Source: Candidatus Margulisiibacteriota bacterium (GTDB lineage: Bacteria > Margulisbacteria > WOR-1 > JAKLHX01 > JBAZKV01). From it: a DNA stretch of 64,000 nucleotides. The notes below the pieces were generated by a model. It saw nothing but the letters and a program-made list of their open reading frames with translations, did not search any database and was not told where the DNA came from. This document shows, piece after piece, positions 3 to 17,996 of this stretch (the first letter of the stretch is position 1; every line of letters begins with the position of its first letter). A program made the position numbers and the translations under genes. Location: the NCBI GenBank assembly GCA_041650635.1, contig JBAZKV010000008.1, positions 2,253 through 66,252 of the forward strand, in the 5' to 3' direction.

Positions 3-941
3 GATGACCACTGTTTTAACTTGCTATACGAGCGCTGGAACAATATTCAGGACTATTCACCGGTTAGACAAGCCTATATTGCCAATTCGTATCTTGGTTT
101 TTTGGGCGAACCTATGGATTATTACCGTGTCCCCAACTGGCACGGGGTAGAGATGGTGCGCAGTTTTCGGGACGGGTTTGGCCGCCCCGTTTATCAGGCT
201 TTGCTTGACACCGGCGAGATGAGAGGGGTCGATCCAGAACATATGTCATGGAGTCTTTCTGGCGACATATACCTCAAAGAAAAATGGAAGATTGACACAG
301 GCAATAAGCTGCCGCGAATCGGATGGAACGACATCCTGACCAGGATGCTTTTTAAACACCTTATAGAACAATACGAAGAAGCTCCCAATACGAACATGAT
401 ATTCAGGTCAACCCCTCTCTATTATTTAGATTCTCTTCTCAGCCAAGAACCGTCAAACGGTTACTTCTGGTTCTCATTTTGCAGACAATATTCTGCCACT
501 TTCAACAATAAAAAGAGCTCTCCAGAAGGAGCCGTTAAACAAATAAGACATTTCCTGAAGGATGGAATTGATCTTTCTGCCATCGTCCATCTTGCAGACG
601 GCGGCTTGTCCTGGAAGATAAGCGGTCCGGACCAGATACTACCTCCAGAACAAATCCTACCAGACGGCATTGTTGCAGGCTTAAGGGAAGCCTGGGAAAT
701 CACCCATCCGGAAGTGCGCCAGCTGGTAGAATTCGAGTTGGATACACCATCTATGTCAACGCTCATATGGACATTCATGGAAAGGATAAGGAACGGATGG
801 ATAGAGGGGCTCTCAGAAATTCCGTCAGAAACGGGAGATTTTGTCGCAAAGTTTGACCGCGGGTGTTATCCGACCTTCAAATTGCCGGGAGTTTGTTGGA
901 ATCGTGCCTCTTTCTCGTATTATAACCTGTCCGATCTCTAA
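3..941 (+). CDS. Hypothetical protein, probably 5'-truncated by the window edge
   Basis: Frame is open from position 3 to the stop at 941 (track starts at TTG 21). No family motif recognised. Confidence 0.65.
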   Translation, partial: DDHCFNLLYERWNNIQDYSPVRQAYIANSYLGFLGEPMDYYRVPNWHGVEMVRSFRDGFGRPVYQALLDTGEMRGVDPEHMSWSLSGDIYLKEKWKIDTGNKLPRIGWNDILTRMLFKHLIEQYEEAPNTNMIFRSTPLYYLDSLLSQEPSNGYFWFSFCRQYSATFNNKKSSPEGAVKQIRHFLKDGIDLSAIVHLADGGLSWKISGPDQILPPEQILPDGIVAGLREAWEITHPEVRQLVEFELDTPSMSTLIWTFMERIRNGWIEGLSEIPSETGDFVAKFDRGCYPTFKLPGVCWNRASFSYYNLSDL

Positions 942-952
942 TGCCATCACCC

Positions 953-1993
953 CTAGCGTATCAGCCCTTCCAGCCAATTCTTTGCAGCAGGCGTTTCCGA
1001 AACACAATATTGATGCATCTCCAGTTTTTTGAGCAGTCCCAAAGGAGTAGGATAAGCAAATTCGAACGGAGGGACAACTGAAGCCATGTCGCGCACCTGG
1101 TCCGAAATATCGGTTAGCGCCACGATCCCTCTTTCGTAGTCTCCCAGAAATTGGGGGGCTATCCCCAGCATCAGAGAGCGTCTGAACATCCTTGAGCCGT
1201 CAAGGTCCTTATCAGGGTCCCATTGAACATAATTGGGGTTTAATTCCGCATCATTGTAGAACCCGTCCTCGGAATAATAGTGAACCCCCATGATTGGGTC
1301 AAGCAGATGGGACCTTTCAAGGAGTTTCTCAAAAGTGCTTCTCATAAGGTCAACCGGGATCACTCTATCTCTGCCGGGCGCAGTTGCCCACTCGCTTCTT
1401 TTCATGGTCCACAGGAACGACGGTTTTATCCAGACCCGGCTTCTTTTTAAAAAGGTTCCCGAAAGAACATGATTGGCCAGGAAAAAGTCAGCCCCTTCGT
1501 CGTTCATGTTCTGATAGACCCTTATCGTCTCGTCCCCGTAGTTTGCCCTTATCATTCTTCTGAAAGGAAAATGCCAGCCAAGGGTATTTACGGAATACGC
1601 TCTGCCAAGATCTTCCGGCCAGTCCGCTTGTCCCGACAAAGTCAACCGTACTTCCTTACCGCGCCGGGATATTTTATCAATGCTCAATGGCTCCGTAAAT
1701 GCCGCGTCCTGCCTGTCCAGGACATTAATATGCCCTCTGTCTGATAAAACCTGCTCTCCTACACACGGCTTCACAGCAAGTTCAATAGAGGCGCCGTTCC
1801 GCTTAATATCCCTGACCAACCCAAAGAATTCATCCCCTCTCGGGAACATGTCAAGCACCTGATAATGGGCCCCAAGCCTTTCATAGGCTTCGATGAATTG
1901 AGGCCTCAAGCGGTCATGCTTTCTCCCCTCGGGCCTGAATACGGCCTCTGCTCTGGTGTAAGGCATTAAGCTGATCCTGGCTGGCATGCGCAT
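953..1993 (-). CDS. Hypothetical protein; C-terminal half may have a degenerate PlsC/LPLAT acyltransferase-like fold
   Basis: 346 aa with an AAAGGA RBS. Ordered motifs FFLANH, IPVD, YYSEDG, FRRS, FAYPTPL loosely follow PlsC blocks, but HX4D is not intact. Confidence 0.6.
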   Translation of the reverse strand: MRMPARISLMPYTRAEAVFRPEGRKHDRLRPQFIEAYERLGAHYQVLDMFPRGDEFFGLVRDIKRNGASIELAVKPCVGEQVLSDRGHINVLDRQDAAFTEPLSIDKISRRGKEVRLTLSGQADWPEDLGRAYSVNTLGWHFPFRRMIRANYGDETIRVYQNMNDEGADFFLANHVLSGTFLKRSRVWIKPSFLWTMKRSEWATAPGRDRVIPVDLMRSTFEKLLERSHLLDPIMGVHYYSEDGFYNDAELNPNYVQWDPDKDLDGSRMFRRSLMLGIAPQFLGDYERGIVALTDISDQVRDMASVVPPFEFAYPTPLGLLKKLEMHQYCVSETPAAKNWLEGLIR

Positions 1994-4519: not shown

Positions 4520-7033
4520 ATGTCAAATTACACCCCTAAAGAGATAGAGCCTCTCAGGCAAAGAGCCTGGCAGGAAAAAAAGCTTTTTGAAGCCGACAAT
4601 TCATCGAACAAGCCAAAATACTACGACCTCGTCATGTTCCCCTACCCTTCCGGCAAGATACACATGGGACATGTGCGAAATTATGCCATAGGAGATGTGC
4701 TCGCTAGGTACAAGAGGATGAAGGGTTTTAATGTCCTCCATCCGATCGGCTGGGACGCCTTTGGCATGCCGGCAGAAAATGCTGCCATCAAGAACAGCTC
4801 TCATCCCAGGGACTGGACCACAAAATGCATAGCGGACATGACCGTCCAGTTGAAAAGACTGGGACTTTCGTACGACTGGTCAAGGGAAGTGACCACCTGC
4901 AGAGAGGATTACTACAAGTGGACACAGTGGATCTTTCTGAAATTCTTTGAAAAAGGCCTGGCATACAGGAAAAAGGCAAAAGTGAACTGGTGCCCTAAAT
5001 GCGAAACTGTCCTGGCCAACGAGCAGGCAAAGGACGGAAAATGCTGGAGATGCGACAGCGCTGTTCGATCAAAGGACATAGAACAATGGTTCTTTAAAAT
5101 AACGCAGTACGCGCAAAGGCTCCTTGATGACATAGAAAAACTGGAAGGCTGGCCCGAGAGCGTTAGGATAATGCAGAGAAACTGGATAGGACGCTCCGAA
5201 GGAACAAGCATAGAGTTCGCTATAAAGGGTTTGGATAAGAAGCTTAAGATATTTACCACCAGGCCGGACACTCTTTTCGGGGTAACCTATATGACCCTTG
5301 CCCCAGAAAACCCGCTAACCGTAGAGTTGTCGCAAGGAACAAGACAGGAGAAAGAGGTCCTTTCCTATATAGAGAGCGTAAAAAGAAAGGACCCTTCGCT
5401 GCGCCAGGTGTCGGAAGAAAAGACCGGAGTGTTCACGGGGGCTTATGCGATAAACCCGGCCAACAACGAGACAATACCGATCTGGACTTCCGATTATGTC
5501 CTAATGGAGTACGGCACCGGCGCTGTCATGGCAGTTCCGGCCCACGACCAGAGAGATTTTGAATTCGCAAAAAAATTTGATCTTCCGATAAAAGAGGTAA
5601 TCGTTCCTAATGGTCCCTCACCCCGGCCTTTGGCCACCCCTCTCCCAACCCCTCGACTACGCTCGGGGCAAGAGGGAGAGGGGCCGGAGATCAGGGCGGC
5701 CTACACTCCCCCCGGCACCATGGTCAATTCCGCACAATTCAACGGCATGGACAGCAATAAGGCCATCGATGCAATAACCCTCTGGCTTGAAGAAAAAGGC
5801 ATCGGCAAAAAAGAGGTTAATTTTAAGCTGAGGGATTGGCTAATATCCCGCCAGAGGTATTGGGGTGCGCCTATTCCCATCGTATATTGCAATAAATGCG
5901 GGGCAGTTCCGGTACCGGATAAAGACCTTCCGGTAAAATTGCCCTATGATGTCAAATTCACGGGGGAAGGCGGTTCTCCCCTGCTGAAGGCTAAAGATTT
6001 TATCAGCACTGCCTGCCCCAAATGCGGCGGAAAGGCAAGCAGGGAAACCGACACGCTTGACACCTTTAACTGCTCCTCCTGGTATTTCTTAAGGTACACG
6101 AACACAGAAAAGGATTCTGACACGCCTTTTGAGCCAAAGGACCTCAAATACTGGCTTCCCGTAGACCAGTATATAGGCGGCATAGAACATGCGATATTGC
6201 ATCTTCTTTACTCAAGGTTCTTCTGCAAAGTTCTGAGCGACATGGGATTTATCCCTGTGGACGAGCCCTTTAAGAACCTTTTGACGCAGGGAATGGTGGT
6301 AAAAGACGGTGCAAAAATGAGCAAGTCCAAAGGCAATGTTGTTGATCCAGACTATATTATTGAAAAATACGGGGCGGACACAGCCAGGGTCTTTATCCTT
6401 TTTGCCTCTCCTCCGGAAAGGGAGCTTGAGTGGAGTGATGCGGGAGTTGAGGGGAGTTATAGATTTTTGAGCAGGATCTGGAGATTGATCAGCGACAATA
6501 AGCCCTCACCCCCTTCCCCTCTCCCAACCCCTCGACTACGCTCGGGGCAAGAGGTAGAGGGGCGCAGGACTGATGGGACCACCCGTATTCTTCACAAAAC
6601 CATAAAAGGTGTTTCAGAAGATATCGAGAGATTCTCCTTTAACACGGCGATCGCAAAGATAATGGAACTGCTTAACGCGCTTCAGGGTTCGCCTCTCGAT
6701 AAAAAGACCGCCGAGACGCTGCTTCTGCTGCTTTCCCCATTTGCTCCGCATGCAGCAGATGAGCTTTGGGAAAAAATAGGCAATACCGGAAGTACGCTGG
6801 AGCAGGACTGGCCGGGCTTTGATCCTGCTCTTGTTAAAGAAACCGAGATCGAGATACCAATACAGGTCAATGGAAAACTAAAGGACAGGATCATGATAGC
6901 AGCGGACCTGCCGGAGGAGCAGGTCAGGGAAAAAGCTCTTCAGTCAGAGAAGATAAAACAGTTGCTGCAGGGTAAAGAAATAGTAAAAGTTATATTTGCC
7001 AACAGAAAACTGGTAAATATAGTTGTCAGGTGA
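4520..7033 (+). CDS. leuS: Leucine--tRNA ligase
   Basis: [13 protein letters not shown] (HIGH), KMSKS, CP1 editing domain, YIGGIEHA. Confidence 0.98.
5615..5687 (+). repeat. Composite palindromic element in frame in leuS, copy 1
   Basis: CCCTCACCCC lead-in, outer CCCCTCTCCC/GGGAGAGGGG stem, inner 24-nt module at 5649-5672. Confidence 0.9.
6503..6562 (+). repeat. Composite palindromic element in frame in leuS, copy 2
   Basis: 6516-6562 matches 5637-5683 at 46 of 47 nt. Confidence 0.9.
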
Positions 7034-7040
7034 GTCCTGT

Positions 7041-8546
7041 CTAATCGTTAACCGTAAAATTCTCCAGCCTTAAATTCCCGCTAAGCGCTGGGTGAATGCA
7101 CATTTTGGTTGTACCTTCGGGTATCTTGAGGGAAACAGGCCCGTCCCGCCGCACCCTTTCGTCCGCCAGCACCGTATCAGTCCCAGAAGCATCATTTATG
7201 AATAATATCATTATTTCGCCTTTGATCTTAGATGCATCAAAGGCCAGTGTGCCCATAACAGCCCTGTCAAGGATAAAATAACCGCCGGCATCGTAATTGC
7301 CTTTTGGAGCGCTTATCTCGATCGCACCGTCTTCCAGCCTGAGCCTTGCACCTCCAAAAGCCCCCTGGGACAAGAAAAGGTCCTTAATATCGGCCCCGGA
7401 CTGCATATCCGGGACAATGGCAGCCGCCGGCTCCGATGCACCGGAATTCGGCTCCATGGGACTGGAAGAAAAGCTTCCGCTGTATTTTTCGAACTGTTCT
7501 CTCAGGCATCCGGTACCTCCATCTGTAATGGACCATATCCTTCTGCATCCCGTTTCTGTTTTTGTGGTATTAAAGTAGAACACCCCTGCCAGATCATCCT
7601 GAACTGCCAGTTCGAAAAGGCTTTTAAGGAACTGTGCCTCGCCCGCGGCTGAGCCCCCGTTGCCTTTGTCATATCCGGTCTCAAGTATCCAGAGCGGCTT
7701 TCCCGGATACAATTGCCTCATCAGTCCAATGGCCGGGCCAAACAGCGCCCTTGCATCCGCGGGGTTTCCTGTCCAGTCGGTACTGTAACCGTCCAGGCCT
7801 ATTCCGTCAACATATCTGTCCCCGGGATAATACGCCGAAGGATCTGTCCCAACATTTGGGTTCCAAAGCCAGGTCGCATATTTATTGGCCCCCGCTCTTT
7901 CAAATGTTTCCCACACATGGATGTAGGCTTCTTTGTATAATTCAGGATGCCCCGCCCAAGGATACCAATCGCCGTTCATTTCGTGGCCAAAGGTCAAAAG
8001 CATTGGGGTATTTTGTGCGGCAAGCCCGGCAGCAAATTTTGCCAGCCCGGTATCAAATTTGCCCGCGATAAGGTTCTCAAGACTGAAGGAATTATCCGAC
8101 TTGCCCTTCCAGCTCCACGGCTCCAGTTTTATAAGCGAAGCGATACCTTTTTGGCGCAAGACACTGACCGTTTCTGAAGGGAAATCAAATCCCTTGCCGA
8201 AGGCGTGAAACTGCAGTACCATGTCAAGATTCCCGCCTATCAGGCTGTTGAACCGGGAAACGCCGGCCGGGGAAAGAGCATCATCCAAAAAGGCCCCAAA
8301 ATAGATACCGTTAGGAGTTATCAGGTTCCTGGCTGGAGTCGCCTCCATCTGGGGCATTCCTCTCTGGATCTCACTGGCAGGAACAGGAACTTGGGGACGG
8401 GGCCTTTCACAGGAGGTAAGGCTCCCGGCTAAAAAAGCAGCCGGAAGTATTAAACGTCCGGATCTATACAAAGACGCCAAAACTGAATTGGATGTTCTCA
8501 TAACAGAGGTTTCATCTCCCTGTTTATTTGTCGGCATTTCCCTCAT
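7041..8546 (-). CDS. Glycoside hydrolase family 26 protein, probable lipoprotein, with C-terminal beta-rich extension
   Basis: FGHEMNGDWYPW, GLDGY, WILETG catalytic motifs; LTSC lipobox-like segment. Start uncertain (8546, 8537 or later). Confidence 0.8.
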   Translation of the reverse strand: MREMPTNKQGDETSVMRTSNSVLASLYRSGRLILPAAFLAGSLTSCERPRPQVPVPASEIQRGMPQMEATPARNLITPNGIYFGAFLDDALSPAGVSRFNSLIGGNLDMVLQFHAFGKGFDFPSETVSVLRQKGIASLIKLEPWSWKGKSDNSFSLENLIAGKFDTGLAKFAAGLAAQNTPMLLTFGHEMNGDWYPWAGHPELYKEAYIHVWETFERAGANKYATWLWNPNVGTDPSAYYPGDRYVDGIGLDGYSTDWTGNPADARALFGPAIGLMRQLYPGKPLWILETGYDKGNGGSAAGEAQFLKSLFELAVQDDLAGVFYFNTTKTETGCRRIWSITDGGTGCLREQFEKYSGSFSSSPMEPNSGASEPAAAIVPDMQSGADIKDLFLSQGAFGGARLRLEDGAIEISAPKGNYDAGGYFILDRAVMGTLAFDASKIKGEIMILFINDASGTDTVLADERVRRDGPVSLKIPEGTTKMCIHPALSGNLRLENFTVND

Positions 8547-8578: not shown

Positions 8579-9310
8579 ATGAATGTTGCAAAAAAACGCT
8601 CCTCAAAAAGGAGGTCTCGCCGCACAGATACCGTAAAAGCGCTTTCCGAAATAAGCCGCACTATCACTTCGGATCTTTTGATAGAGGACATTCTTGCTTC
8701 GATAGTGGAAGTAACCGCGAAATTGATGGGCTCCAATATCTGCTCCATTTTTCTTCTGGACAGCGAAAAAAACCTGCTGGTGAACAAAGCGTCCCAAAGC
8801 GTAAGCGCACTCTATAACAATAAGCCCCCGCTAAAGGCTGGCGAGGGTATCGCGGGAAAGGTGCTTTTGCTCAACAAGCCCGCCGCCGTTAAGGATGTCA
8901 AAAAAGAGCCGGAGTACAAATACAGGGACATCGCCAAAAAAGAGGGGCTATGCTCTCTATTGTGCGTGCCCCTGGCGGTAAAAGGAAAGGCTATCGGCGT
9001 TATCAACTCCTATACTTCCAAACCTCATGCTTTTACAGGGACAGAGATCGAGGTCCTTAGCGCGATAGCATCGCTTGCGGCAATGGCCATAGAGAACACA
9101 GGCCTGCTGATGAAGGCAAAAAGCGTTGAGGAAGAGCTGCAATCGCGCAAATCTATCGAAAGGGCCAAAGGGATCCTTATGAGGGACGAGGGGCTTTCCG
9201 AAGAGGACGCTTATCTGAGGATACAAAGATTCTCTATGGACTCGCGCAAGACCATGAGAGAGATTGCAGACTCCCTTATCCTGAGTTATAATCTTAGAAG
9301 GCTCAGGTGA
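8579..9310 (+). CDS. GAF + ANTAR domain RNA-binding regulator
   Basis: GAF (LLCVPLAVKGKAIGVIN) followed by ANTAR (IERAKGILM..LSEEDAY..IQRFSMDSRKTMREIA). Confidence 0.92.
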   Translation: MNVAKKRSSKRRSRRTDTVKALSEISRTITSDLLIEDILASIVEVTAKLMGSNICSIFLLDSEKNLLVNKASQSVSALYNNKPPLKAGEGIAGKVLLLNKPAAVKDVKKEPEYKYRDIAKKEGLCSLLCVPLAVKGKAIGVINSYTSKPHAFTGTEIEVLSAIASLAAMAIENTGLLMKAKSVEEELQSRKSIERAKGILMRDEGLSEEDAYLRIQRFSMDSRKTMREIADSLILSYNLRRLR

Positions 9311-9313
9311 ACC

Positions 9314-10714
<1,401 letters not shown>

Positions 10715-10739
10715 CTCTTTCTAAAGGTCCTGGCTCCAA

Positions 10740-10766
10740 GGGGCGGGTTTTCCCGCCCCTTTTTTT
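10740..10766 (+). terminator. Rho-independent terminator after gdhA
   Basis: GGGGCGGG-TTTT-CCCGCCCC followed by T7. Confidence 0.88.
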
Positions 10767-10849
10767 GCTTTCGATACCCAATTCCTGAAATTCCAAAAAA
10801 TATCCTTCGACAACTTCTTGTGAACAGCATAATCACAAAGGAGAAATAG

Positions 10850-12844
10850 ATGCCGACAACGCCGCTTATAAGGACTATAGCAGGAATGCCGGAATTTTCG
10901 GGCAGGCTGGGAACAGAAGTTCTTAGAAGTATGGTGATCAGGGATAACAATTCAGGGTTCTATCACTCCAGAGGACAGGCCCCCTTGTCCGTAATGATAA
11001 ACGGTCCCCAGCTGGCACCTTTTCTTGGTGTGAGTCAGCCGCCGCTTTATTACACAATGACCGCTTCCGGACAGGTCCATACAGGCAATGTCAGCTGTAT
11101 CAGGCTGGCAACCGATCTTGCCAAAGACATGGGTTTTAAGAACCCTCTGGCCGAGGTCTGTCTTGACGGGGGAAAGTCAGTCTTATATCTTTCCAAAGGG
11201 GGTTATTTTGCGGTCACCTGCGTGTACGGGGATCCCGATCTATTTAAGAGAGGGGATGTTATCGCTAAAGGCGGGGTCAGGATAATGGCGGAAGCCGGTC
11301 TTGCCGAAACAGCCATCCTAAACATGATCGAGCCTACTGTCTCACAATACCTGCGAGCTTTTGTAGATCTTGGCACCTTGGGCTTCAGCCGCTCCGAAGG
11401 CCCCGATATGAAACCGGCCTGCCTGGACGAAGGAGCATTAATGGGGCTGATGGACCGCATAGGAAGGCAGGCAGAAGACGATCTTGGCGTGCAGTTGGTC
11501 CCTTTTACGACAAGCGGACCCGGAGAACTGGGGTTCTTTAACCACGACGAATGGAGAGGGACTTCTTACGGACATCTTGAATGTCTTTGCGCATTGTTGT
11601 CCAATGCCTCCGTACTTTCACATTTTGGCATAGACCGCTCAAACCCGATCACTATGAACATTCAGGGCTACGGAGAAGTCGGTTCCAATATCGTCAGGCT
11701 TCTAAGGGAAGTGGAAAGATATTCAAGGTACGGATTTGCGGTTTCCGGAATATCTGATGAATCGGGGGCTTTTTATAATCCCTCGGGGTTTTCTTTGGAT
11801 CTTCTTTACGAGCTTGCCCAAGAAAGAGAGCGCGGCTGGGGCATTAATGCAAGCACTCCTTTCACCTTGGCCGCCAGTTCCCACTATAGGACTATTGCCC
11901 CGCATCAAATAGAAAGGGACGCTCTGATCTTTATGCCGGCAGTCATTTCTATAGCAGCCGGACCGCCTTATGTTATAAGAGATACCAATGATGTTTCAAG
12001 ACTTCAAACCAGGATCTGGGCTCCTGTTGCTAACGCTCCTCTCGGGACAAAGACTTCGTCCGGAGAAGAGATCAGGCAGATAGAAACGGCGATGCAAGAC
12101 AAAAGGATCATTAACCTGCCTGCATGGATGCTCAATTTTGGAGGGATAGCACTTTCAAAAGAAGAGATACTCCACAGGCTTATGGCCGGAGGCATACATA
12201 ATATGACGGATCCCCTAACAAGAGCCTGGCTAAAGGAACATGTTAACGAAGGCGATGTTAGCGACACAGCCTGGACAAATATGGGGTGGGCTTTGCACGA
12301 ATGGGCAAAAGTCGGCTACGGATCCCCGATAAGCGATATTTTGGGAAACCGCATAGCCCATATTCAAGAAAGAAGAAGGCAGATACTCATGGGATGGGAC
12401 AGAAGCGATAGCCTGCCTGGAAATTTAATGAGGATGGACAGCGCCACCATGAGAGCAAAAATGGAAGTAATGGCAAATGACTTCTCAAGCGAAGAACTGG
12501 AGAACATGAGGCGTCTTTTGACCGACTGGGACGCTCCGGAAGAGGAAAGAAGGGTTGCCGCCGATGTTTTAGGAAAGCTCTGTTCAAAGGGCTGCCAAAA
12601 CGATTTCTTGGAAATAATTGAAAGGGGCTTAACAGCAGATCTTCAAACGCTCGCACAGAGCACTGTCATGTTCAGGAACGCAGCCACCGGCCTCGGGTAC
12701 ATCCTCGAAGGCAGGGCTGCCACGCACGGGGACATCTTGAACAGATTAAAGGAAGTTCTCATAGTGCTGAAGTCCCAAAACACCGAAGAGGCTTTCGGCA
12801 AGATCGTGGCGCTCGAATGGCTCTTGGACAAACTTGGTTCCTGA
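10850..12844 (+). CDS. Highly divergent Glu/Leu/Phe/Val dehydrogenase-like protein with HEAT-like C-terminal extension
   Basis: LAKDMGFKN..DGGKSV, GPDM, IQGYGEVG, ISDESGAFYNPSG, ANAP and LNFGG occur in ELFV-dehydrogenase order; AAAGGAG RBS. Confidence 0.65.
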   Translation: MPTTPLIRTIAGMPEFSGRLGTEVLRSMVIRDNNSGFYHSRGQAPLSVMINGPQLAPFLGVSQPPLYYTMTASGQVHTGNVSCIRLATDLAKDMGFKNPLAEVCLDGGKSVLYLSKGGYFAVTCVYGDPDLFKRGDVIAKGGVRIMAEAGLAETAILNMIEPTVSQYLRAFVDLGTLGFSRSEGPDMKPACLDEGALMGLMDRIGRQAEDDLGVQLVPFTTSGPGELGFFNHDEWRGTSYGHLECLCALLSNASVLSHFGIDRSNPITMNIQGYGEVGSNIVRLLREVERYSRYGFAVSGISDESGAFYNPSGFSLDLLYELAQERERGWGINASTPFTLAASSHYRTIAPHQIERDALIFMPAVISIAAGPPYVIRDTNDVSRLQTRIWAPVANAPLGTKTSSGEEIRQIETAMQDKRIINLPAWMLNFGGIALSKEEILHRLMAGGIHNMTDPLTRAWLKEHVNEGDVSDTAWTNMGWALHEWAKVGYGSPISDILGNRIAHIQERRRQILMGWDRSDSLPGNLMRMDSATMRAKMEVMANDFSSEELENMRRLLTDWDAPEEERRVAADVLGKLCSKGCQNDFLEIIERGLTADLQTLAQSTVMFRNAATGLGYILEGRAATHGDILNRLKEVLIVLKSQNTEEAFGKIVALEWLLDKLGS

Positions 12845-12893
12845 CCGATACCTGTAAGGGCAGGACATCGTTCATTTGTTATAATGATGACAG

Positions 12894-14492
12894 ATGCATG
12901 ACCTTATTCGCGATAAAATCCTGCCGGCCGTATCAAAGCCCGCGCGCTATATCGGAAACGAGCTGAATTCCATTCACAAAGGCCACAAAGGCATGGTAAA
13001 GGTGGCGCTGTGCTATCCGGACACCTATGAGATAGGCATGTCCAACCTGGGGCTGTCCATTCTTTATCACCTGATCATCAAAAGAGAGGATGCCATTTGC
13101 GAAAGAGTTTTTTCCCCATGGCCCGACATGGAAGCGGCCATGAAAGAGCACGGAGTACCGCTTTTTTCGCTTGAATCCTGGAAACCGATAAAGGATTTTG
13201 ATATCCTCGGGTTTTCTCTGCAGCATGAGCTTACTTACACGAACATGCTCAACATCCTTAAATTGTCGGACATCCCGCTTAAGCGGAAAGAAAGGACCGG
13301 AGGCCATCCCCTGATAATTGCCGGAGGGGCCTGCACCAATAATCCGGAGCCGTTATCCGATTTTATCGATGCCTTTGTTCTAGGCGACGGCGAAGAGGTG
13401 ATACGGGAGATAATAGATGCATATAAATCCTGTAGGGATCGGCCACAACCGACCCCTACGCACACGCCTTTATTGGATAATTTGTCCAAAATCGACGGGG
13501 TATATGTACCCGATCATAATGAATTGAAAAATGTCAAACGCCGGACGGTTAAGGACCTGAACTCTATCGATTATCCCGCCAAACCGATAGTCCCTTTCAT
13601 AGAGGTAGTCCACGACAGGGCCACCATAGAGATAATGCGGGGCTGTCCCAGAAGATGCAGTTTTTGCCAGGCCGGAACAGTAAATAAGCCCGTCCGGCTG
13701 GTTGACCCGGAAAAGGTAGTTGCTCTTGCTAAAGAAACAATAAAGAACACCGGGTTTGAAGAGGTCTCTCTTGTTTCGCTCTCCAGCTGCGATTATCCCA
13801 GGATCTGGGAGGTCGCAAACGAGCTGGGAAAGGCCTTTGGGCCAAAAAGGATCTCTGTCTCTCTGCCCTCGATGAGGCCCGACAGCTTTAGGGCTGATAT
13901 AGCAAAAGAACTGCAGAATGTCAGAAAGTCAGGAATTACTCTGGCTCCCGAGGCAGGAACACAGAGGCTGCGCGATCATATACACAAGGACCTGACGGAA
14001 GAAAACATCCTGTCCTCCATAGGTAACGCTTTTGCATCCGGCGCCAACAGCGTAAAACTCTATTTTATGATAGGGCTCCCGACAGAAACAGAAGAAGACC
14101 TGGCAGGAATTGTTGCTTTATCCAACAGAATAATCAAAGAAGGCAAGACCGTTAATCCCCGGGCAAAGATAACCGTTAATGTTTCGACATTCATACCAAA
14201 GAAAAACACTCCTTTTGAGAATGAAAAGATGATCTCACTGGATAAGATACAGAAAAAACAGAACTATCTTAAACAGAACCTTAGGCATAAAAGCATAGAA
14301 CTGCGCTGGCATAAAGCGGAGATGTCCGTCATAGAAGGCTTGTTTTCATCCCTCGAAGCCGGACGAGGGCTTCCTATGGCCAAAATATTGCTTGATGCTT
14401 TTGAAGCCGGCTGCAGATTTGACAACTGGACCGAACATTTTGACTATTGCAAATGGGAGGTGGCAATTGCAGCGCATAAGGATCAAATATAA
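12894..14492 (+). CDS. B12-binding radical SAM protein (TIGR03960-like)
   Basis: KPARYIGNELN, YPDTYEIGMSNLG, EIMRGCPRRCSFCQAG, TLAPEAGTQRLR. Confidence 0.9.
   Translation: MHDLIRDKILPAVSKPARYIGNELNSIHKGHKGMVKVALCYPDTYEIGMSNLGLSILYHLIIKREDAICERVFSPWPDMEAAMKEHGVPLFSLESWKPIKDFDILGFSLQHELTYTNMLNILKLSDIPLKRKERTGGHPLIIAGGACTNNPEPLSDFIDAFVLGDGEEVIREIIDAYKSCRDRPQPTPTHTPLLDNLSKIDGVYVPDHNELKNVKRRTVKDLNSIDYPAKPIVPFIEVVHDRATIEIMRGCPRRCSFCQAGTVNKPVRLVDPEKVVALAKETIKNTGFEEVSLVSLSSCDYPRIWEVANELGKAFGPKRISVSLPSMRPDSFRADIAKELQNVRKSGITLAPEAGTQRLRDHIHKDLTEENILSSIGNAFASGANSVKLYFMIGLPTETEEDLAGIVALSNRIIKEGKTVNPRAKITVNVSTFIPKKNTPFENEKMISLDKIQKKQNYLKQNLRHKSIELRWHKAEMSVIEGLFSSLEAGRGLPMAKILLDAFEAGCRFDNWTEHFDYCKWEVAIAAHKDQI
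13432..13459. repeat. 28-nt GTAG-type REP-like palindrome inside the radical SAM gene
   Basis: GTAGGGATCGG-CCACAA-CCGACCCCTAC, encoding CRDRPQPTPT. Confidence 0.75.
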
Positions 14493-15057
14493 AAAAGGCG
14501 GCGGGCTCGTGTTTATCGGCCACCTTGACATGATCCGGCTGTGGGAGCGCGCGGTAAGGAGAGGCGAGCTGCCGGTCGCATATTCTCAGGGTTATAATCC
14601 GAGGCAAAAATTGGCGTTCGGCCCTCCCCTGCCCCTTGGCATGGCCTCAGACTGCGAATACCTGGACATCTTTCTGGAAAAATGGGCCTCGGCTGAAAAA
14701 GTGAAAGCGGACCTGGAGCTTACGCTTATGCCAGGCATAGAGATACTGGGAGTTACTTCCGTGTTTTCCGGCATGCCTTCTATCTCTTCCTCAATAAAGA
14801 CCGCTGTTTACGAAATAAAGACCGTAAAGGACCCGTCAAAGAAAGCGCAGGAAATACTGTCAACCAATTCAATTATTGTTGTCAGGAAAGAAAATCAGAT
14901 GGATATACGGCCCATGATAAAAAAGATAGGGTTTTCCGGAAATACAGTCAACATTGAGGTCAGATGCGACAACAGCGGCTCTATCAAAGGCAGCGAACTT
15001 AAAGGCCTTTTCAAAGAAACCGGCATCGCTTCAATTAAGAGGACAAACCTTTTCTGA
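14467..15057 (+). CDS. Radical SAM-linked protein (TIGR03936/DUF2344-like)
   Basis: FIGHLDMIRLWERAVRR, YSQGYNP, FGPPLPLG. TTG start at 14467 with GGGAGG RBS is preferred to 14392. Confidence 0.88.
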   Translation: MQRIRIKYKKGGGLVFIGHLDMIRLWERAVRRGELPVAYSQGYNPRQKLAFGPPLPLGMASDCEYLDIFLEKWASAEKVKADLELTLMPGIEILGVTSVFSGMPSISSSIKTAVYEIKTVKDPSKKAQEILSTNSIIVVRKENQMDIRPMIKKIGFSGNTVNIEVRCDNSGSIKGSELKGLFKETGIASIKRTNLF

Positions 15058-16233
15058 TCACAGATATTTCTTGGCCACGGCAAAGAGTTTTTTGTTCAAA
15101 ACAAAATTGTCTGTAGAAAGGAGCGTGAAAAGGTCTTTCTTTCTGCTTCCATAGATGCCGTAAAAGTTGTCCATTCCTGTCTTTGTTGCCGCATTGCCTA
15201 TGATGCCGCTGGCATCGGACAACTGAAAAACCCCGTCCGGCAAAGGGACCCCTTTTACCGATTTATAGGTCCAGTAGGTCCAGTGTATCCCGTATTTTTT
15301 GAACAGGGACAGCACATCGTCCACCCATCTGTACTCTGCTCCGCAGAGGTCGCACCTGGAAGCCACTCCGAACTCCCCGCAAAAAAGCGGCTTCTTCAAT
15401 TTATTTGCAAATCTGACGCTGTCTTTTATCAGCTTTTCCATCTCTTTTTTGTTCCATAGCTTTCCCAGCACCCTGCCGGGATATTTTAGTCCTGGGAGCC
15501 AGTTAAAAGTGTATTCTACGGGACGGTAATAATGTATGCTGACCGCCAAATTATCATCTTTAAGGCTTTCAATATAGTCAGTGTCCATACCCCAATTGTT
15601 GCCCTCAACAAAGATGATATGCCTGTCCCCCTGTCCTCTTACCGCCGAGATCACCTTCTGGAAGGTCTTTGTAAGCAAAGGGATGTTGTCCGTCACCGGC
15701 TCGTTCATAACATCATAGCCGGCTATCATCTTTTCGCTCTTAAAGGCGGATGAAAGCTTTTTCCAGAGCTTTATGTACTGGTTTCTATACCCCGGCCTCT
15801 GCCAGAAAAGAGCCCTGCCGTCGCTGTCGGAGTGCCAGTCTATGTTCTGGGAACCCGGGACCGCATGCATGTCCAGGATCACATAGAGCCCCTGCTGCGC
15901 AAAAAGCCTGACCGTTTTTTTTAGATATGAGAGTCCGTTCTTTTCCTCAAGTAGCCTGTGATTGAAAGGCAGCCGAACGCAGTTGAACCCCAGATTCTTT
16001 ATCCTTTTGACATCCTCCTTAGAAAAATAGGAATCCCTGAAAAGCTTTGTAAACTCAAGGGGGGCATTCTTTCCATGGAGCCTTGCCAGTTCCTTTTTGA
16101 ACAAATGTTCGGGTATATTGCGGCCGCCAAGCATATACCCTTCCATCATCAGCCAGCCGCCGATATTGATGCCTTTGAGCGTTATTCTTTTGCCATGCTC
16201 ATCAACGATATGTGTGCCGGAGGTTTTAAGCAT
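15058..16233 (-). CDS. Glycoside hydrolase family 5 protein
   Basis: GINIGGWLMMEG, VRLPF, LDMHAVPGSQN, NEP and GEFG catalytic glutamates. Confidence 0.88.
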   Translation of the reverse strand: MLKTSGTHIVDEHGKRITLKGINIGGWLMMEGYMLGGRNIPEHLFKKELARLHGKNAPLEFTKLFRDSYFSKEDVKRIKNLGFNCVRLPFNHRLLEEKNGLSYLKKTVRLFAQQGLYVILDMHAVPGSQNIDWHSDSDGRALFWQRPGYRNQYIKLWKKLSSAFKSEKMIAGYDVMNEPVTDNIPLLTKTFQKVISAVRGQGDRHIIFVEGNNWGMDTDYIESLKDDNLAVSIHYYRPVEYTFNWLPGLKYPGRVLGKLWNKKEMEKLIKDSVRFANKLKKPLFCGEFGVASRCDLCGAEYRWVDDVLSLFKKYGIHWTYWTYKSVKGVPLPDGVFQLSDASGIIGNAATKTGMDNFYGIYGSRKKDLFTLLSTDNFVLNKKLFAVAKKYL

Positions 16234-17926
16234 GAGTAATACTTGAGATTAATTGCTCGATAGACTGAGGGCCCAGATCGCCTTTTTCCCTTGACCGCAC
16301 CGCTACTTGCTTTGCTTCAACTTCTTTGTCCCCGATAACCAGCATATAGGGCACCTTTTGCAGCTGGGCTTCGCGTATCTTAAAGCCGACTTTTTCGTTG
16401 CGGCTGTCCACTTCCACCCTGAGCCCTGTCTCCTCCAGTTTTCCTGCGATCTCTTTTGCATAAGCTGCGTGCCTGTCGGCAATAGGCAGCACTATGACCT
16501 GCACCGGAGCAAGCCACAGGGGGAAAGCCCCGGCATAATGCTCCGTCAGAACACCGATGAACCTTTCCATGCTGCCGAGGACCACCCTGTGTATCATTAC
16601 CGGCCTGTGCTTTTGGCCGTCCTCGCCGGCATAAGTAAGGTCAAACCTCTCCGGCAGGTTAAAGTCGGCCTGGATGGTAGGCCCCTGCCACAGCCGCCCG
16701 ATCGCATCCTTTATTTTTACATCTATTTTTGGCCCGTAGAACACTCCTGCCCCGGGATCTATCTTGTACTCTATCCCCTTTGCTTTGAGCGCGGCCTCCA
16801 GGGCTTCGGTTGCGTTCTTCCAGTTTTCCTGGCTCCCTACCGCTTTGTCCGGACGGGTAGAAAGATATACTTCATAATTTTCAAAGCCGAATTTTTTTAG
16901 CATGTCAAAGGCAAAATCGATGGTCTTTTTTATCTCTTCGTTCAATTGGTCAGGCCTGCAAAAAATATGCGCGTCATCCTGGGTAAAACCTCTAACCCGC
17001 AAAAGCCCGTGCAGTACCCCCGAGCGCTCGTGCCTGTAAACCGTCCCAAGTTCAAAATACCTGATCGGAAGGTCCTTATAACTGTTGATCTTTCTTTTAT
17101 AAATGAGCAGATGGTAAGGGCAGTTCATCGGCTTAAGCACATAATCCTGCTCGTCCACACTTAAAAAATACATGTTCTCTTTATAATATCCGGTGTGTCC
17201 CGAAGTTTTCCAGAGATTTTCCCTTGCGATGTGGGGAGTAATGACATGGCTGTAGCCCCTTTTTGCGTGCTCTTTTTTGAGATAGTCCTCGATCAACTGC
17301 CGCAAAATTGCTCCTTTGGGATGATAGAACACAAGCCCTGCACCGGCTTCTTCATGATAGATGTTAAACAGGTCGAGATCTTTCCCGAGTTTTCTATGAT
17401 CCCTTTTTGCCGCCTCCTCAAGCCTCTTCAGGTATTCATCAAGCTCTTTTTGCGTTTCAAAAGCTGTGCCGTAGATCCTCTGGAGCATTGCGTTCTTTTC
17501 GTCCCCTCTCCAGTAGGCTCCCGCTGTCTTTAGCAGCTTAAACGCCTTGATCTTGCCGGTAGAAGCGATATGCGGCCCGCGGCACATATCAATGAACTCC
17601 CCGCTCTTATAAAAGGAGATCTTTTCATCGGGGATGCCGCTGATCAACTCGATCTTGTAGGTCTGGCCCTGCTTCTGCATCATTTGCAAAGCTTCTGCCC
17701 TGGGATATTCCACGCGCTCAAATTTTTCGTTCTTCTTTATGATCTCGCGCATCTTTTCTTCTATCACAGGCAGGTCTTCTTCCTTTAGGGCGCGGGGGAG
17801 TTCAAGATCATAATAAAAGCCGTCCTCGATGGCAGGGCCTATGGCCAGCTTTGCCTGCGGGAAGAGCTCTTTAACGGCCGCCGCCATTACATGCGATGCC
17901 GAGTGTCTTAATACTGTTATATCCAT
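16226..17926 (-). CDS. thrS: Threonine--tRNA ligase lacking the N-terminal TGS domain
   Basis: RHSASHVMA, DMCRGPH, RDHRKLG, KPMNCP, RVRGFTQDDAH. Start MDITVL at 17926. Confidence 0.97.
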   Translation of the reverse strand: MDITVLRHSASHVMAAAVKELFPQAKLAIGPAIEDGFYYDLELPRALKEEDLPVIEEKMREIIKKNEKFERVEYPRAEALQMMQKQGQTYKIELISGIPDEKISFYKSGEFIDMCRGPHIASTGKIKAFKLLKTAGAYWRGDEKNAMLQRIYGTAFETQKELDEYLKRLEEAAKRDHRKLGKDLDLFNIYHEEAGAGLVFYHPKGAILRQLIEDYLKKEHAKRGYSHVITPHIARENLWKTSGHTGYYKENMYFLSVDEQDYVLKPMNCPYHLLIYKRKINSYKDLPIRYFELGTVYRHERSGVLHGLLRVRGFTQDDAHIFCRPDQLNEEIKKTIDFAFDMLKKFGFENYEVYLSTRPDKAVGSQENWKNATEALEAALKAKGIEYKIDPGAGVFYGPKIDVKIKDAIGRLWQGPTIQADFNLPERFDLTYAGEDGQKHRPVMIHRVVLGSMERFIGVLTEHYAGAFPLWLAPVQVIVLPIADRHAAYAKEIAGKLEETGLRVEVDSRNEKVGFKIREAQLQKVPYMLVIGDKEVEAKQVAVRSREKGDLGPQSIEQLISSITHA

Positions 17927-17935
17927 TTTTCTACG

Positions 17936-17996
17936 CCCGAACATAAATGTTCGGCTCCGTTTTTCTTCAACATGGAGCCGACGCTTTAGCGTCGGG
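17936..17996. repeat. Inverted pair of 23-nt hairpin repeats (BIME-like) in the thrS leader
   Basis: CCCGAACATAAATGTTCGGCTCC (17936-17958) and GGAGCCGACGCTTTAGCGTCGGG (17974-17996). Same pair recurs at 22355-22444. Confidence 0.8.

Follow-up and report, generated by a model that had tools for sequence, protein, structure and literature searches.

A glutamate dehydrogenase-like protein with a relocated KGGxR hairpin and a HEAT-like tail, encoded next to gdhA in a Candidatus Margulisiibacteriota bacterium

The locus

The open reading frame (ORF) described here lies on a stretch of 64,000 nucleotides from a Candidatus Margulisiibacteriota bacterium (assembly GCA_041650635.1, contig JBAZKV010000008.1), which is referred to as the window. 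The ORF occupies positions 10850 to 12844 of the plus strand, begins with ATG, has a complete frame of 664 codons, and follows gdhA, the gene of a canonical glutamate dehydrogenase (GDH). An earlier note, made from the sequence alone, had read its product as a highly diverged paralog of the amino-acid dehydrogenases with a HEAT-like tail, either a dehydrogenase of new specificity or a regulatory partner of GdhA. The analysis confirmed that the ORF product truly belongs to the glutamate/leucine dehydrogenase superfamily (Pfam ELFV), of which it is a very unusual representative.

All nine motif strings on which that reading relied are present in the ORF, one copy each and in the expected order (Table 1). 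A ribosome-binding site (RBS) of its own and a position behind the gdhA terminator had been claimed as well, and both elements were found. No sigma-70-like promoter was found on the plus strand in the interval between terminator and ATG. The protein has no transmembrane segment, and its sole hydrophobic stretch is borderline and lies within the Rossmann domain. The PADLOC models for anti-phage defence returned 0 families for the ORF and its two downstream neighbours, and membership in a defence system was rejected on this basis.

Table 1. Features of the ORF and of its surroundings in the window.
Feature	Position in window (nt)	Strand	Residues	Basis or remark
GAF + ANTAR protein	8579..9310	+		Pfam E 8e-21 and 3e-19; 69 nt 5' of gdhA
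gdhA, canonical NADP-type GDH	9380..10714	+		NCBIfam PRK09414, 765 bits; both Pfam ELFV domains
Intrinsic terminator of gdhA	10738..10771	+		stem 10738-10761 (10 bp, 8 GC pairs), then T-run
RBS AAGGAG	10838..10843	+		6 nt 5' of the ATG of the ORF
Permuted ELFV (GDH-like) module with HEAT tail (whole ORF)	10850..12844	+	1-664	Pfam, hhalign, AlphaFold2, Foldseek, dN/dS
Domain I equivalent (substrate binding/oligomerisation), strongly diverged	10850..11599	+	1-250	hhalign, Foldseek
Remnant at the canonical hairpin site, PLYYTMTAS-GQVHTGN	11042..11089	+	65-80	without KGG lysine
Lys-helix and catalytic strand	11096..11194	+	83-115	K97 (FKN; nt 11138-11140), K109 (DGGK; nt 11174-11176)
Motif LAKDMGFKNPLAEVCLDGGKSV			90-111	
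Relocated beta-hairpin YFAVTCVYGD...AKGGVRI	11201..11290	+	118-147	K140 at nt 11267-11269; insertion relative to canonical GDH
Motif GPDM	11399..11410	+	184-187	D186, equivalent of the catalytic Asp; hhalign onto Asp of gdhA 'AGDI'; family-invariant
Motif GTSYG			237-241	
Rossmann NAD(P)-binding domain	11600..12184	+	251-445	PF00208; GYGEVG 273-278, S302-D303, A394-N395, NFGGIALS 429-436
Motif IQGYGEVG			271-278	
Motif SDESGAFYNPSG			302-313	
Motif ANAP			394-397	
Motif LNFGG			428-432	
C-terminal helices	12185..12409	+	446-520	partly equivalent to the GDH C-terminal helices returning to domain I; hhalign to residue 511
HEAT-like (PBS/alphaRep-type) helical-repeat tail	12410..12841	+	521-664	family profile, AlphaFold2, HEAT_2 of relatives
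Motif ERRVAADVLGKL			566-577	A-helix of a HEAT repeat
Motif FRNAATGLGYI			608-618	A-helix of a HEAT repeat
TIGR03960 B12-binding radical-SAM protein	12894..14492	+		usual partner of TIGR03936/DUF2344
TIGR03936/DUF2344 protein	14392..15057	+		listed TTG start overlaps the radical-SAM gene by 100 nt

Assignment to the ELFV superfamily

Pfam PF00208 (ELFV_dehydrog) matches residues 254-444 of the ORF with an E value of 2.2e-10 and 41.1 bits against a cut-off of 23.4, and it is matched by every other family member too. When the ORF sequence alone is searched against the PDB, GDHs are the only matches, and these are weak (1gtm, E 5e-4). A profile of the family reaches the GDH of B. subtilis at E 1.6e-10, with the PDB GDHs aligned at residues 250-457. 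The same profile separately matches the leucine dehydrogenase (LeuDH) chains 3vpx, 6acf, and 8gxd at residues 82-116, which hold the lysine motif. Alignment of 15 family modules with 13 canonical GDHs by hhalign gives a probability of 99.9 % (E 1.2e-33) and places residues 73-511 of the ORF on gdhA 89-416 at about 18 % identity. With the N-terminal 120 residues alone, residues 13-120 fall on gdhA 35-136 with a probability of 88 %.

An AlphaFold2 model of the ORF product was built from a six-sequence alignment and has a mean predicted local distance difference test score of 85.8 and a predicted template-modelling (TM) score of 0.87. When this model is compared with the PDB by Foldseek, the 50 best matches comprise only GDH-type ELFV enzymes, including one named phosphinothricin dehydrogenase, with a probability of 1.00, E values down to 2e-13, and TM scores normalised to the target of 0.60-0.66. 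The alignments cover whole GDH chains of about 415 residues at 13-17 % identity. Helices are modelled at residues 455-487 and 494-515 of the C-terminal region. The ELFV fold is thus found by Pfam, hhalign, and Foldseek alike, so that the outcome named in the earlier note as a refutation did not occur, and the description as a highly diverged dehydrogenase-like protein of this superfamily is borne out. The N-terminus, which had been called unrelated, is instead a diverged domain I. The parallel drawn with LeuDH holds for the lysine motif, whereas the overall resemblance is nearer to GDH.

Among the closest known counterparts are the hexameric GDHs of about 50 kDa, such as those of Pyrococcus and Thermococcus (1gtm/1euz), RocG and GudB of B. 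subtilis (3k92/3k8z), and the GdhA of the window. In the whole-chain Foldseek comparison they have the same two-domain fold as the ORF product. They also share with it the GxGxxG motif, 'SD', 'AN', the FKN lysine, the GGK lysine, the catalytic aspartate, the KGG lysine, and the serine of NxGG[VI]xxS. The ORF differs from them in the relocated KGGxR hairpin, in DGGK, in its failure to match PF02812, and in the additional tail.

Active-site residues and substrate pocket

In the hhalign comparison, K97 falls on the lysine of the GDH motif 'FKN', K109 on the catalytic lysine of 'GGGK', and D186 on the catalytic aspartate; the roles of this lysine and aspartate pair in catalysis were described for AtGDH1 (PMC7326016). 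Across the 15 aligned modules, which share 27-94 % identity, the residues K97, K109, D186, G275/V277/G278, S302-D303, A394-N395, N429, and S436 are invariant. The presence of both lysines and of the Rossmann motif, recognised in the earlier note for the ORF, is confirmed, as is that of the aspartate. DGGK stands in the ORF in place of GG[SAG]K, and its lysine is the invariant one that is aligned to the catalytic lysine. The catalytic lysine and aspartate are kept in every one of about 25 divergent sequences. A permuted clade at about 25 % identity retains the catalytic set, with the replacement of D303 by asparagine as the sole change.

Two further invariant residues in the family of the ORF bear on the substrate, namely K140, which lies in 'AKGGVRI', and S436, which lies in 'NFGGIALS'. 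The stretch N-F-G-G-I-A-L-S aligns with N-A-G-G-V-A-T-S of gdhA, which makes S436 the equivalent of GDH S380 in the hhalign alignment. In the GDH of C. symbiosum, K89 and S380, the lysine of KGG and the serine of NxGG[VI]xxS, are the two residues in contact with the γ-carboxylate of glutamate. Their counterparts in the LeuDH of B. sphaericus are L40 and V294, and the leucine, phenylalanine, and valine dehydrogenases have hydrophobic residues at both sites. At these positions, which tell GDH and LeuDH apart, the pocket of the ORF product is accordingly predicted to be of the GDH type.

The relocated KGGxR hairpin

In canonical GDH, the KGGxR hairpin is followed by the Lys-helix and the GGK strand. 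The order in the ORF is Lys-helix, GGK, hairpin. Relative to canonical GDH, hhalign treats residues ~119-151 as an insertion, and this insertion holds the most conserved stretch of the family, YxAVTxVYGD-x12-AKGGVRI. Residues 73-80 fall on 'KGGLRFHP' of gdhA, and the loop at this site is free of lysine and variable across the family.

Motif scans divide the relatives by segment order. The swapped-order group comprises the query, P0001-P0013, P0015, P0020, and P0023, and follows the pattern helix 'TDLAxDMxx-KNxLAEVFFDGGK', hairpin 'xAVTxxYG[DN]..KGG[VI]R', and 'EGPDM'. The canonical-order group consists of the canonical GDHs together with P0022, P0024, P0027, P0028, P0030, P0034, P0035, P0046, and P0055, and has the hairpin '..FEAVTGIYGNPNLP..IISKGGIRYY', the helix '..RLAEAMxx-KNP[LF]WxVFFDGGK', 46-55 residues, and 'YIAGPDM'. 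Accordingly, the spacing from KN to GPD is 87 residues in the ORF and 81-92 in the swapped-order group, as opposed to 46-55 in the canonical-order group. The members of the latter group that are not GDHs are distant and either carry HEAT tails or lie inside multidomain proteins.

Seven of these distant proteins (P0022, P0024, P0027, P0028, P0030, P0034, and P0035) combine an ELFV domain having FDGGK and GPDM with HEAT_2. Their motifs KNP[LF]xxVFFDGGK and [IV][AG]GPDM are near-identical to those of the ORF, with which they also share the hairpin (xAVTxIYGN...KGG[IV]R) and a C-terminal HEAT_2 tail, and they are often multidomain. They keep the hairpin before the Lys-helix, whereas the clade of the ORF has the two swapped, with about 35-40 extra residues between KN and GPD. 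A hidden Markov model (HMM) of the hairpin only, built from residues 117-147 of the core clade, matches P0030 at 102-127 (i-E 1.3e-3) and P0027 at 177-203 (i-E 2.5e-2), in both cases 27-28 residues N-terminal of the KN motif. The KGGxR half of this model matches six further relatives at the same relative position. The permuted clade at about 25 % identity mentioned above forms a third group (P0016, P0017, P0018, P0021, P0026, P0033, P0040, P0045, and P0048) and retains K97, K109 (as G-[RK]-K), K140/R144 (KGGDR), GPD, the Rossmann glycines, N395, and S436.

In the AlphaFold2 model, residues 74-82 form a coil and residues 142-147 (GVRIMA) a strand, which would fit a hairpin that fills, from its new place, the sheet position of the old strand. 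The hairpin probably moved by local duplication of the hairpin-helix-GGK unit, followed by degeneration of the first hairpin, which would have left the KGG-less remnant at the old site, and by loss of the second helix-GGK segment. The sheet at the oligomer interface would have been remodelled by this event. As the domain I sheet builds the two-fold interface of the GDH hexamer (PMC7326016), the rearrangement may alter the quaternary structure. Full-text literature searches found no account of a permuted or HEAT-tailed GDH.

The HEAT-like tail

The C-terminal extension of about 145 residues is HEAT-like, as had been proposed. The family profile matches the designed HEAT protein alphaRep (6ft5) at residues 566-614 with an E value of 3.9e-11, and this match is centred on RRVAAxxLGK and RNAAxGLGY, both of the segments flagged in the earlier note. 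Pfam HEAT_2 (PF13646) has no match in the ORF at E <= 1, yet it matches the relatives P0025 (5e-10), P0018 (5e-6), and P0016 (4e-5). The AlphaFold2 model shows six paired helices from residue 547 to 663, equivalent to about 2-2.5 repeats.

Large bacterial GDHs (L-GDH180, Bac_GDH) also have a GDH core flanked by long helical extensions. However, these extensions differ from those of the ORF, and no permutation is known in the L-GDH180 family. Bac_GDH and L-GDH180 are absent from the matches to the ORF in Pfam (E <= 1), in the PDB sequence search (E <= 10), and in the fold search, and a relationship to L-GDH180 was rejected for want of a Pfam or PDB match.

Distribution and fusion into giant proteins

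The family that combines a permuted GDH with a HEAT tail is rare. A word-indexed search of 5.8 billion clusters yielded five relatives with 94, 68, 45, 42, and 43 % identity, and when a module alignment of 11 sequences was used as a profile in a search of the same word-indexed kind, only one canonical GDH was added to these. The family census rests on an HMM search that was exhaustive over 1.84 billion 50 %-representatives. In this search, about 14 proteins contain the whole or nearly whole module (E <= 1e-150). Below an E value of 1e-30 there are 33 matches, and a limit of E < 1e-3 gives 434, a list that ends in ordinary GDHs and generic HEAT proteins. A narrow scan of the GTDB species representatives with two degenerate peptide patterns confirmed no relative. 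The window sequence itself was found again in metagenomes from landfill, sludge, wastewater, and biogas fermenters. The threonyl-tRNA synthetase of the window shares at most 67 % identity with a GTDB representative, an unclassified metagenome-assembled genome, and the matches that follow, with 60-64 %, belong to Margulisiibacteriota, Auribacterota, and Omnitrophota.

The ORF product and its closest relatives (P0001-P0004, P0007/P0158) are free-standing and have neither a signal peptide nor the conserved C-terminal domain of the large relatives. In eight of the best matches, the whole or nearly whole module of about 660 residues is part of a much longer protein, and those embedded modules that are in the module alignment are 42-48 % identical to the ORF. 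P0008 (2750 aa) has an N-terminal extension, the module, GcvT, GcvP-alpha, and GcvP-beta. In P0009 and P0010 (2128 and 1969 aa), a GT5 starch/glycogen-synthase domain precedes the module, while P0011 (3846 aa) has an APH kinase domain, GT5, and then the module. P0014 (2270 aa) carries the module followed by HATPase_c, and the more distant relative P0024 combines ELFV with GGDEF. The window holds no giant gene.

Several of these proteins have entered databases under other names. P0009 (MCX5679481.1) and P0011 (MFA5147201.1) are from metagenome-assembled genomes of Candidatus Omnitrophota and are annotated only as 'glycogen/starch synthase' and 'phosphotransferase', respectively. P0023 is a 'hypothetical protein' of Gemmataceae, and P0015 is a 'glutamate dehydrogenase/leucine dehydrogenase' of the JGI.

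Three independent contigs (L088 1-22478, L094 1-31541, and L095 1-26387) share one locus around a giant protein with the module. In this locus, a giant with PGM/PMM (+PGK) is followed by the module giant, two GFO_IDH_MocA genes, AP_endonuc_2, and an ABC permease. The PGM/PMM (+PGK) giant has at least 3,700 residues in L088 and L094 and 1,726 residues in L095. Only in L094, a 1150-aa PFK and a 622-aa PGI lie between the module giant and the GFO_IDH_MocA genes. Past the ABC permease, the Omnitrophota locus continues with HAD, GH130, MFS, and PfkB genes.

Giant proteins of Omnitrophota typically contain HEAT_2, GT5, PGM/PMM, HATPase_c, GGDEF, and signal peptides, according to two preprints (bioRxiv 10.1101/2023.11.21.568195; bioRxiv 10.64898/2026.06.07.730766). 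The main text of neither preprint mentions an ELFV/GDH domain, and the glycine-cleavage domains GcvT/GcvP are absent from the domain types of both. Proteins of 2,000-3,800 residues of this kind, named 'Archaeovorins' or 'multi-enzyme metabolic clusters', embed the module with the identity given above. With the exception of GcvT/GcvP, the domain partners of the embedded modules (GT5, APH, HEAT) match the types listed in these preprints. The ORF product differs from these giants in being a free-standing protein without a signal peptide, and it is homologous to one module of them only.

Some further features were observed in the large relatives. Their signal peptides carry lineage-specific conserved motifs ('FLFNT', 'LTQ..SSAA[YF]ADIK'), and several share a C-terminal domain of about 180 residues, which is 58 % identical between P0005 869-1046 and P0014 2093-2270. 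Nearly all end in small residues (...FAxAA, ...LSAA, ...KSA; ...AA or ...SA), and such a C-terminus may be a sorting or degradation tag.

Selection and divergence

Among three alleles with 94-95 % identity (the window, L096, and L097), the ratio of nonsynonymous to synonymous substitution rates (dN/dS) of the ORF is 0.23-0.27. The ORF is therefore a functional gene, which is under purifying selection, if somewhat relaxed.

A more distant comparison is provided by L001, where protein identity to the window is 68 % for the ORF, 91 % for gdhA, 83 % for the radical-SAM protein, 82 % for the regulator, and 94-95 % for the DUF2344 protein, the cellulase, and threonyl-tRNA synthetase (ThrRS). The synonymous divergence (dS) is saturated both for gdhA, at 1.7, and for the ORF, at 2.1 or more, as against 0.18 for the cellulase. 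The alignment of window 8579-17944 with L001 1-9160 is therefore mosaic, which indicates a recombination boundary within or near the radical-SAM gene, and part of the low identity of the ORF to its L001 relative reflects this boundary. A rate of evolution about five times that of the neighbours was considered for the ORF and needs qualifying, because the comparison is mosaic in dS; within the diverged block, the nonsynonymous divergence of the ORF is 4.6 times that of gdhA. By segment, identity to L001 is highest in the hairpin (88 %) and the Lys-helix (75 %), and the lowest values are those of the N-terminus, at 53 %, and of the HEAT tail, at 62 %.

Proposed function and alternatives

On the best-supported reading, to which we assign a probability of about 0.5, the ORF product is an amino-acid dehydrogenase that is active and depends on NAD(P); its pocket is of the GDH type, its hairpin has been relocated, and its HEAT tail serves for docking. 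This reading is favoured because the catalytic residues are invariant in about 25 sequences down to ~25 % identity, because the gene is under purifying selection, and because the module is fused to metabolic enzymes. What follows on activity, substrate, cofactor, and tail is our inference from these observations. The protein would reside in the cytoplasm and bind its substrate amino acid where domain I and the Rossmann domain enclose a cleft. A hydride would be transferred to NAD(P)+, K109 would activate water on the imine, and D186 would shuttle a proton, by analogy with the family. The expected products are a 2-oxo acid and ammonium, in a reversible reaction. Since K140 and S436 correspond to the contacts of GDH with the distal carboxylate, glutamate/2-oxoglutarate or another acidic amino acid would be the likeliest substrate. 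By offering other proteins a surface for docking, the HEAT-like tail may tether the enzyme to its partners. Glycine cleavage releases NH3 and yields NADH through the L-protein, and both are substrates of GDH, which gives the module fused to GcvT/GcvP a metabolic setting.

Several findings weigh against an active dehydrogenase of this kind. The ORF has no match to the N-terminal domain PF02812 at E <= 1 and lacks the glycine-rich lysine signature; counting its non-canonical segment order, it fails three usual sequence definitions of the ELFV superfamily. The signature, [LIV]-x2-G-G-[SAG]-K-x-[GV]-x3-[DNST]-[PL], is a PROSITE-type pattern; as a regular expression it fits gdhA of the window and matches neither the ORF nor P0001-P0015. 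In three dimensions, K140 may take the position of GDH K89, a placement drawn from sequence logic and secondary structure. The dN/dS of the ORF is about twice that of its neighbours on the same contigs (cellulase 0.16, gdhA fragment 0.14). RNA of the ORF was traced to a single identical 151-nt metatranscriptome contig of depth 2 in one RNA-seq run. A Sec-type signal peptide is present at the N-terminus of most large relatives (P0005, P0006, P0008, P0009, P0011-P0013, P0016-P0018, and the L088 gene 4361-9796), a feature with which a nucleotide-dependent enzyme is hard to reconcile, unless the topology predictions are wrong or the compartment holds nucleotides. Lastly, fusions to GGDEF and to a histidine-kinase ATPase, which are typical of sensor modules, occur among the more distant HEAT-type relatives.

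The last two points, together with the raised dN/dS, lead to the main rival, a ligand-sensing pseudo-enzyme or 'trigger enzyme', which we regard as doubtful but serious. Its core would bind an amino acid, 2-oxoglutarate, or NAD(P)H, and the HEAT tail or the fused outputs would transmit the nitrogen or redox state, while selection would not act on turnover. Such a role agrees with the fusion of FDGGK/GPDM and HEAT relatives to GGDEF (P0024) and HATPase_c (P0014), with the attachment of core-family modules to glycogen-synthase-like and kinase domains that are plausibly regulated, and with the suitability of a HEAT tail for protein-protein signalling. The GAF-ANTAR regulator and gdhA also place the ORF in a neighbourhood of nitrogen metabolism, and the puzzling signal peptides of the large relatives point the same way. 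However, pseudo-enzymes usually lose the catalytic lysine and aspartate in some lineages, whereas both are invariant in all of the ~25 sequences. In addition, the glycine-cleavage fusion is metabolic rather than of the signalling type, and the clade of the ORF has no conserved partner gene.

A dehydrogenase of new, non-glutamate specificity, LeuDH- or PheDH-like (PheDH, phenylalanine dehydrogenase) or acting on another substrate, is unlikely. The LeuDH-like Lys-helix would suit it, as would the variable, lysine-free loop at the canonical K89 site, and the rearrangement must change the geometry of the pocket. Nevertheless, the invariant KGGxR hairpin persists and is merely relocated, S436 aligns with the serine of GDH and not with the valine of LeuDH, and the best matches by structure and by sequence are all GDHs.

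In the third alternative, the ORF product would regulate the adjacent GdhA, as its subunit or as its partner; this was one of the two roles suggested at the outset and is improbable. Thermus thermophilus offers a precedent, as its GdhA/GdhB hetero-hexamer (PDB 3aoe, among the Foldseek matches of the ORF) is encoded by two ELFV genes side by side, one of them possibly regulatory, and the HEAT tail of the ORF could dock onto such a partner. Both Thermus subunits are canonical GDHs of about 420 residues that co-assemble, whereas in the window, domain I is rearranged, a terminator separates the two genes, and the adjacency is not conserved. It is limited to one cluster of species-to-genus level, in which the ORF stands directly 3' of gdhA in the window, in L001, which carries the 68 % relative, and in L096, a 95 % allele on a shorter contig that keeps the order of the window from gdhA on. 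In L097 (94 % allele), the ORF lies between two unannotated partial genes at the corresponding positions, and the upstream one is probably gdhA. Adjacency to gdhA is absent at L002, L003, L007, L091-93, L088, L094, and L095, and in all fused forms. The gene of P0005 comes after methionyl-tRNA synthetase, that of P0004 adjoins PfkB, and that of P0158 (P0007/P0158) lies among unrelated genes; P0003 likewise lacks the adjacency, and L007, which holds a partial relative with 74 % identity to the ORF, has a gene other than gdhA upstream. With no synteny conserved beyond this close cluster, the suggestion of a regulatory partner is not upheld.

Three further observations stand against a partnership with GdhA. 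The terminator between gdhA and the ORF is strong and conserved, L001 having a structurally equivalent one with different loop and stem bases. The sheet at the hexamer interface (PMC7326016) is the very part that is rearranged, which makes canonical co-assembly unlikely. Moreover, a BLASTP comparison of the ORF with the neighbouring GdhA finds nothing significant; its best match (E 0.65) is the 20-residue lysine motif, and the ORF is thus not a recent or local duplicate of gdhA. The term paralog therefore applies at the level of the superfamily and not in the sense of a local gene duplication.

The last alternative is a decaying or non-functional ELFV remnant carried beside gdhA. It would suit the weak Pfam score, the near absence of RNA evidence, and the identity of only 68 % to the orthologue in L001, where most neighbours reach 91-95 %. 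This reading is effectively refuted by the dN/dS, by a 664-codon frame that is intact in all alleles, by active-site residues invariant across ~25 distant relatives, and by a confident AlphaFold2 model, the low L001 identity being in part a matter of the recombination boundary, with gdhA saturated in dS too.

Returning to the active dehydrogenase, a wider role can be sketched tentatively. The ORF may be the free-standing cytoplasmic prototype of a cassette of permuted GDH and HEAT tail that was repeatedly built into the signal-peptide-bearing giants of Omnitrophota. Within a tethered metabolon, such a cassette would supply, consume, or report NAD(P)H, 2-oxoglutarate, and ammonium, with the HEAT tail for docking. 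It would have been fused in an oversized glycogen/glycolysis locus (PGM/PGK, GT5, APH, PFK, PGI) and, once, onto the T and P proteins of glycine cleavage. If this is true, many of the 'HEAT_2' matches, reported as the commonest domain of Archaeovorins, are tails of this cassette.

The ELFV dehydrogenases are found in every textbook, and their architecture is very stable. A natural lineage in which a substrate-binding hairpin has moved while all catalytic residues are kept would be a clean case of a non-circular segment permutation in an enzyme core, and the rearranged hexamer sheet may bring with it a new quaternary structure and a new allostery. The 664-aa protein is small and expressible and offers a tractable entry to a recurring, unnoticed block of giants that are too large for direct study. 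Even if it is merely a second GDH with a docking tail, the annotation remains useful; those of its relatives that are named in public sources now stand under the labels given above, of which 'glutamate dehydrogenase/leucine dehydrogenase' is a generic one.

Neighbouring genes and other observations

The window and L001 share the gene order GAF-ANTAR regulator, gdhA, ORF, TIGR03960 radical-SAM, TIGR03936 (DUF2344), GH5 cellulase, and ThrRS. The position of the GAF + ANTAR gene before gdhA suggests control of nitrogen assimilation at the RNA level, by antitermination. The gdhA terminator was considered as the ANTAR target and rejected, since an inspection by eye, without a systematic search, found no room for dual hexaloop hairpins 5' of the stem. 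The true start of the DUF2344 gene is probably at about 14467, because the L001 orthologue aligns only from residue 26. Upstream of the partial relative in L007, a 391-aa protein (53-1228, minus strand) resembles an integrase/transposase of insertion-sequence type by eye.

Genes resembling glycoside hydrolases flank the block on the minus strand at 7041-8546 and 15058-16233, which suggests a polysaccharide-degrading anaerobe. The latter gene is Pfam Cellulase/GH5 in the syntenic contigs, and the former has no NCBIfam match.

The leuS gene (4520-7033, plus strand) contains two in-frame copies of a 48-nt element at 5637-5684 and 6516-6563, which are 98 % identical; no further copy lies within the window. 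The element has inverted termini (CCCCTCTCCC...GGGAGAGGGG), and each copy adds a peptide ending in [GV]EG to leucyl-tRNA synthetase. In orthologues of this synthetase that are 90 % or more identical, copy 1 is missing from P0162 and neither copy is present in P0163, so the insertions are recent. They resemble the palindromic elements inserted in-frame in genes of Rickettsia.

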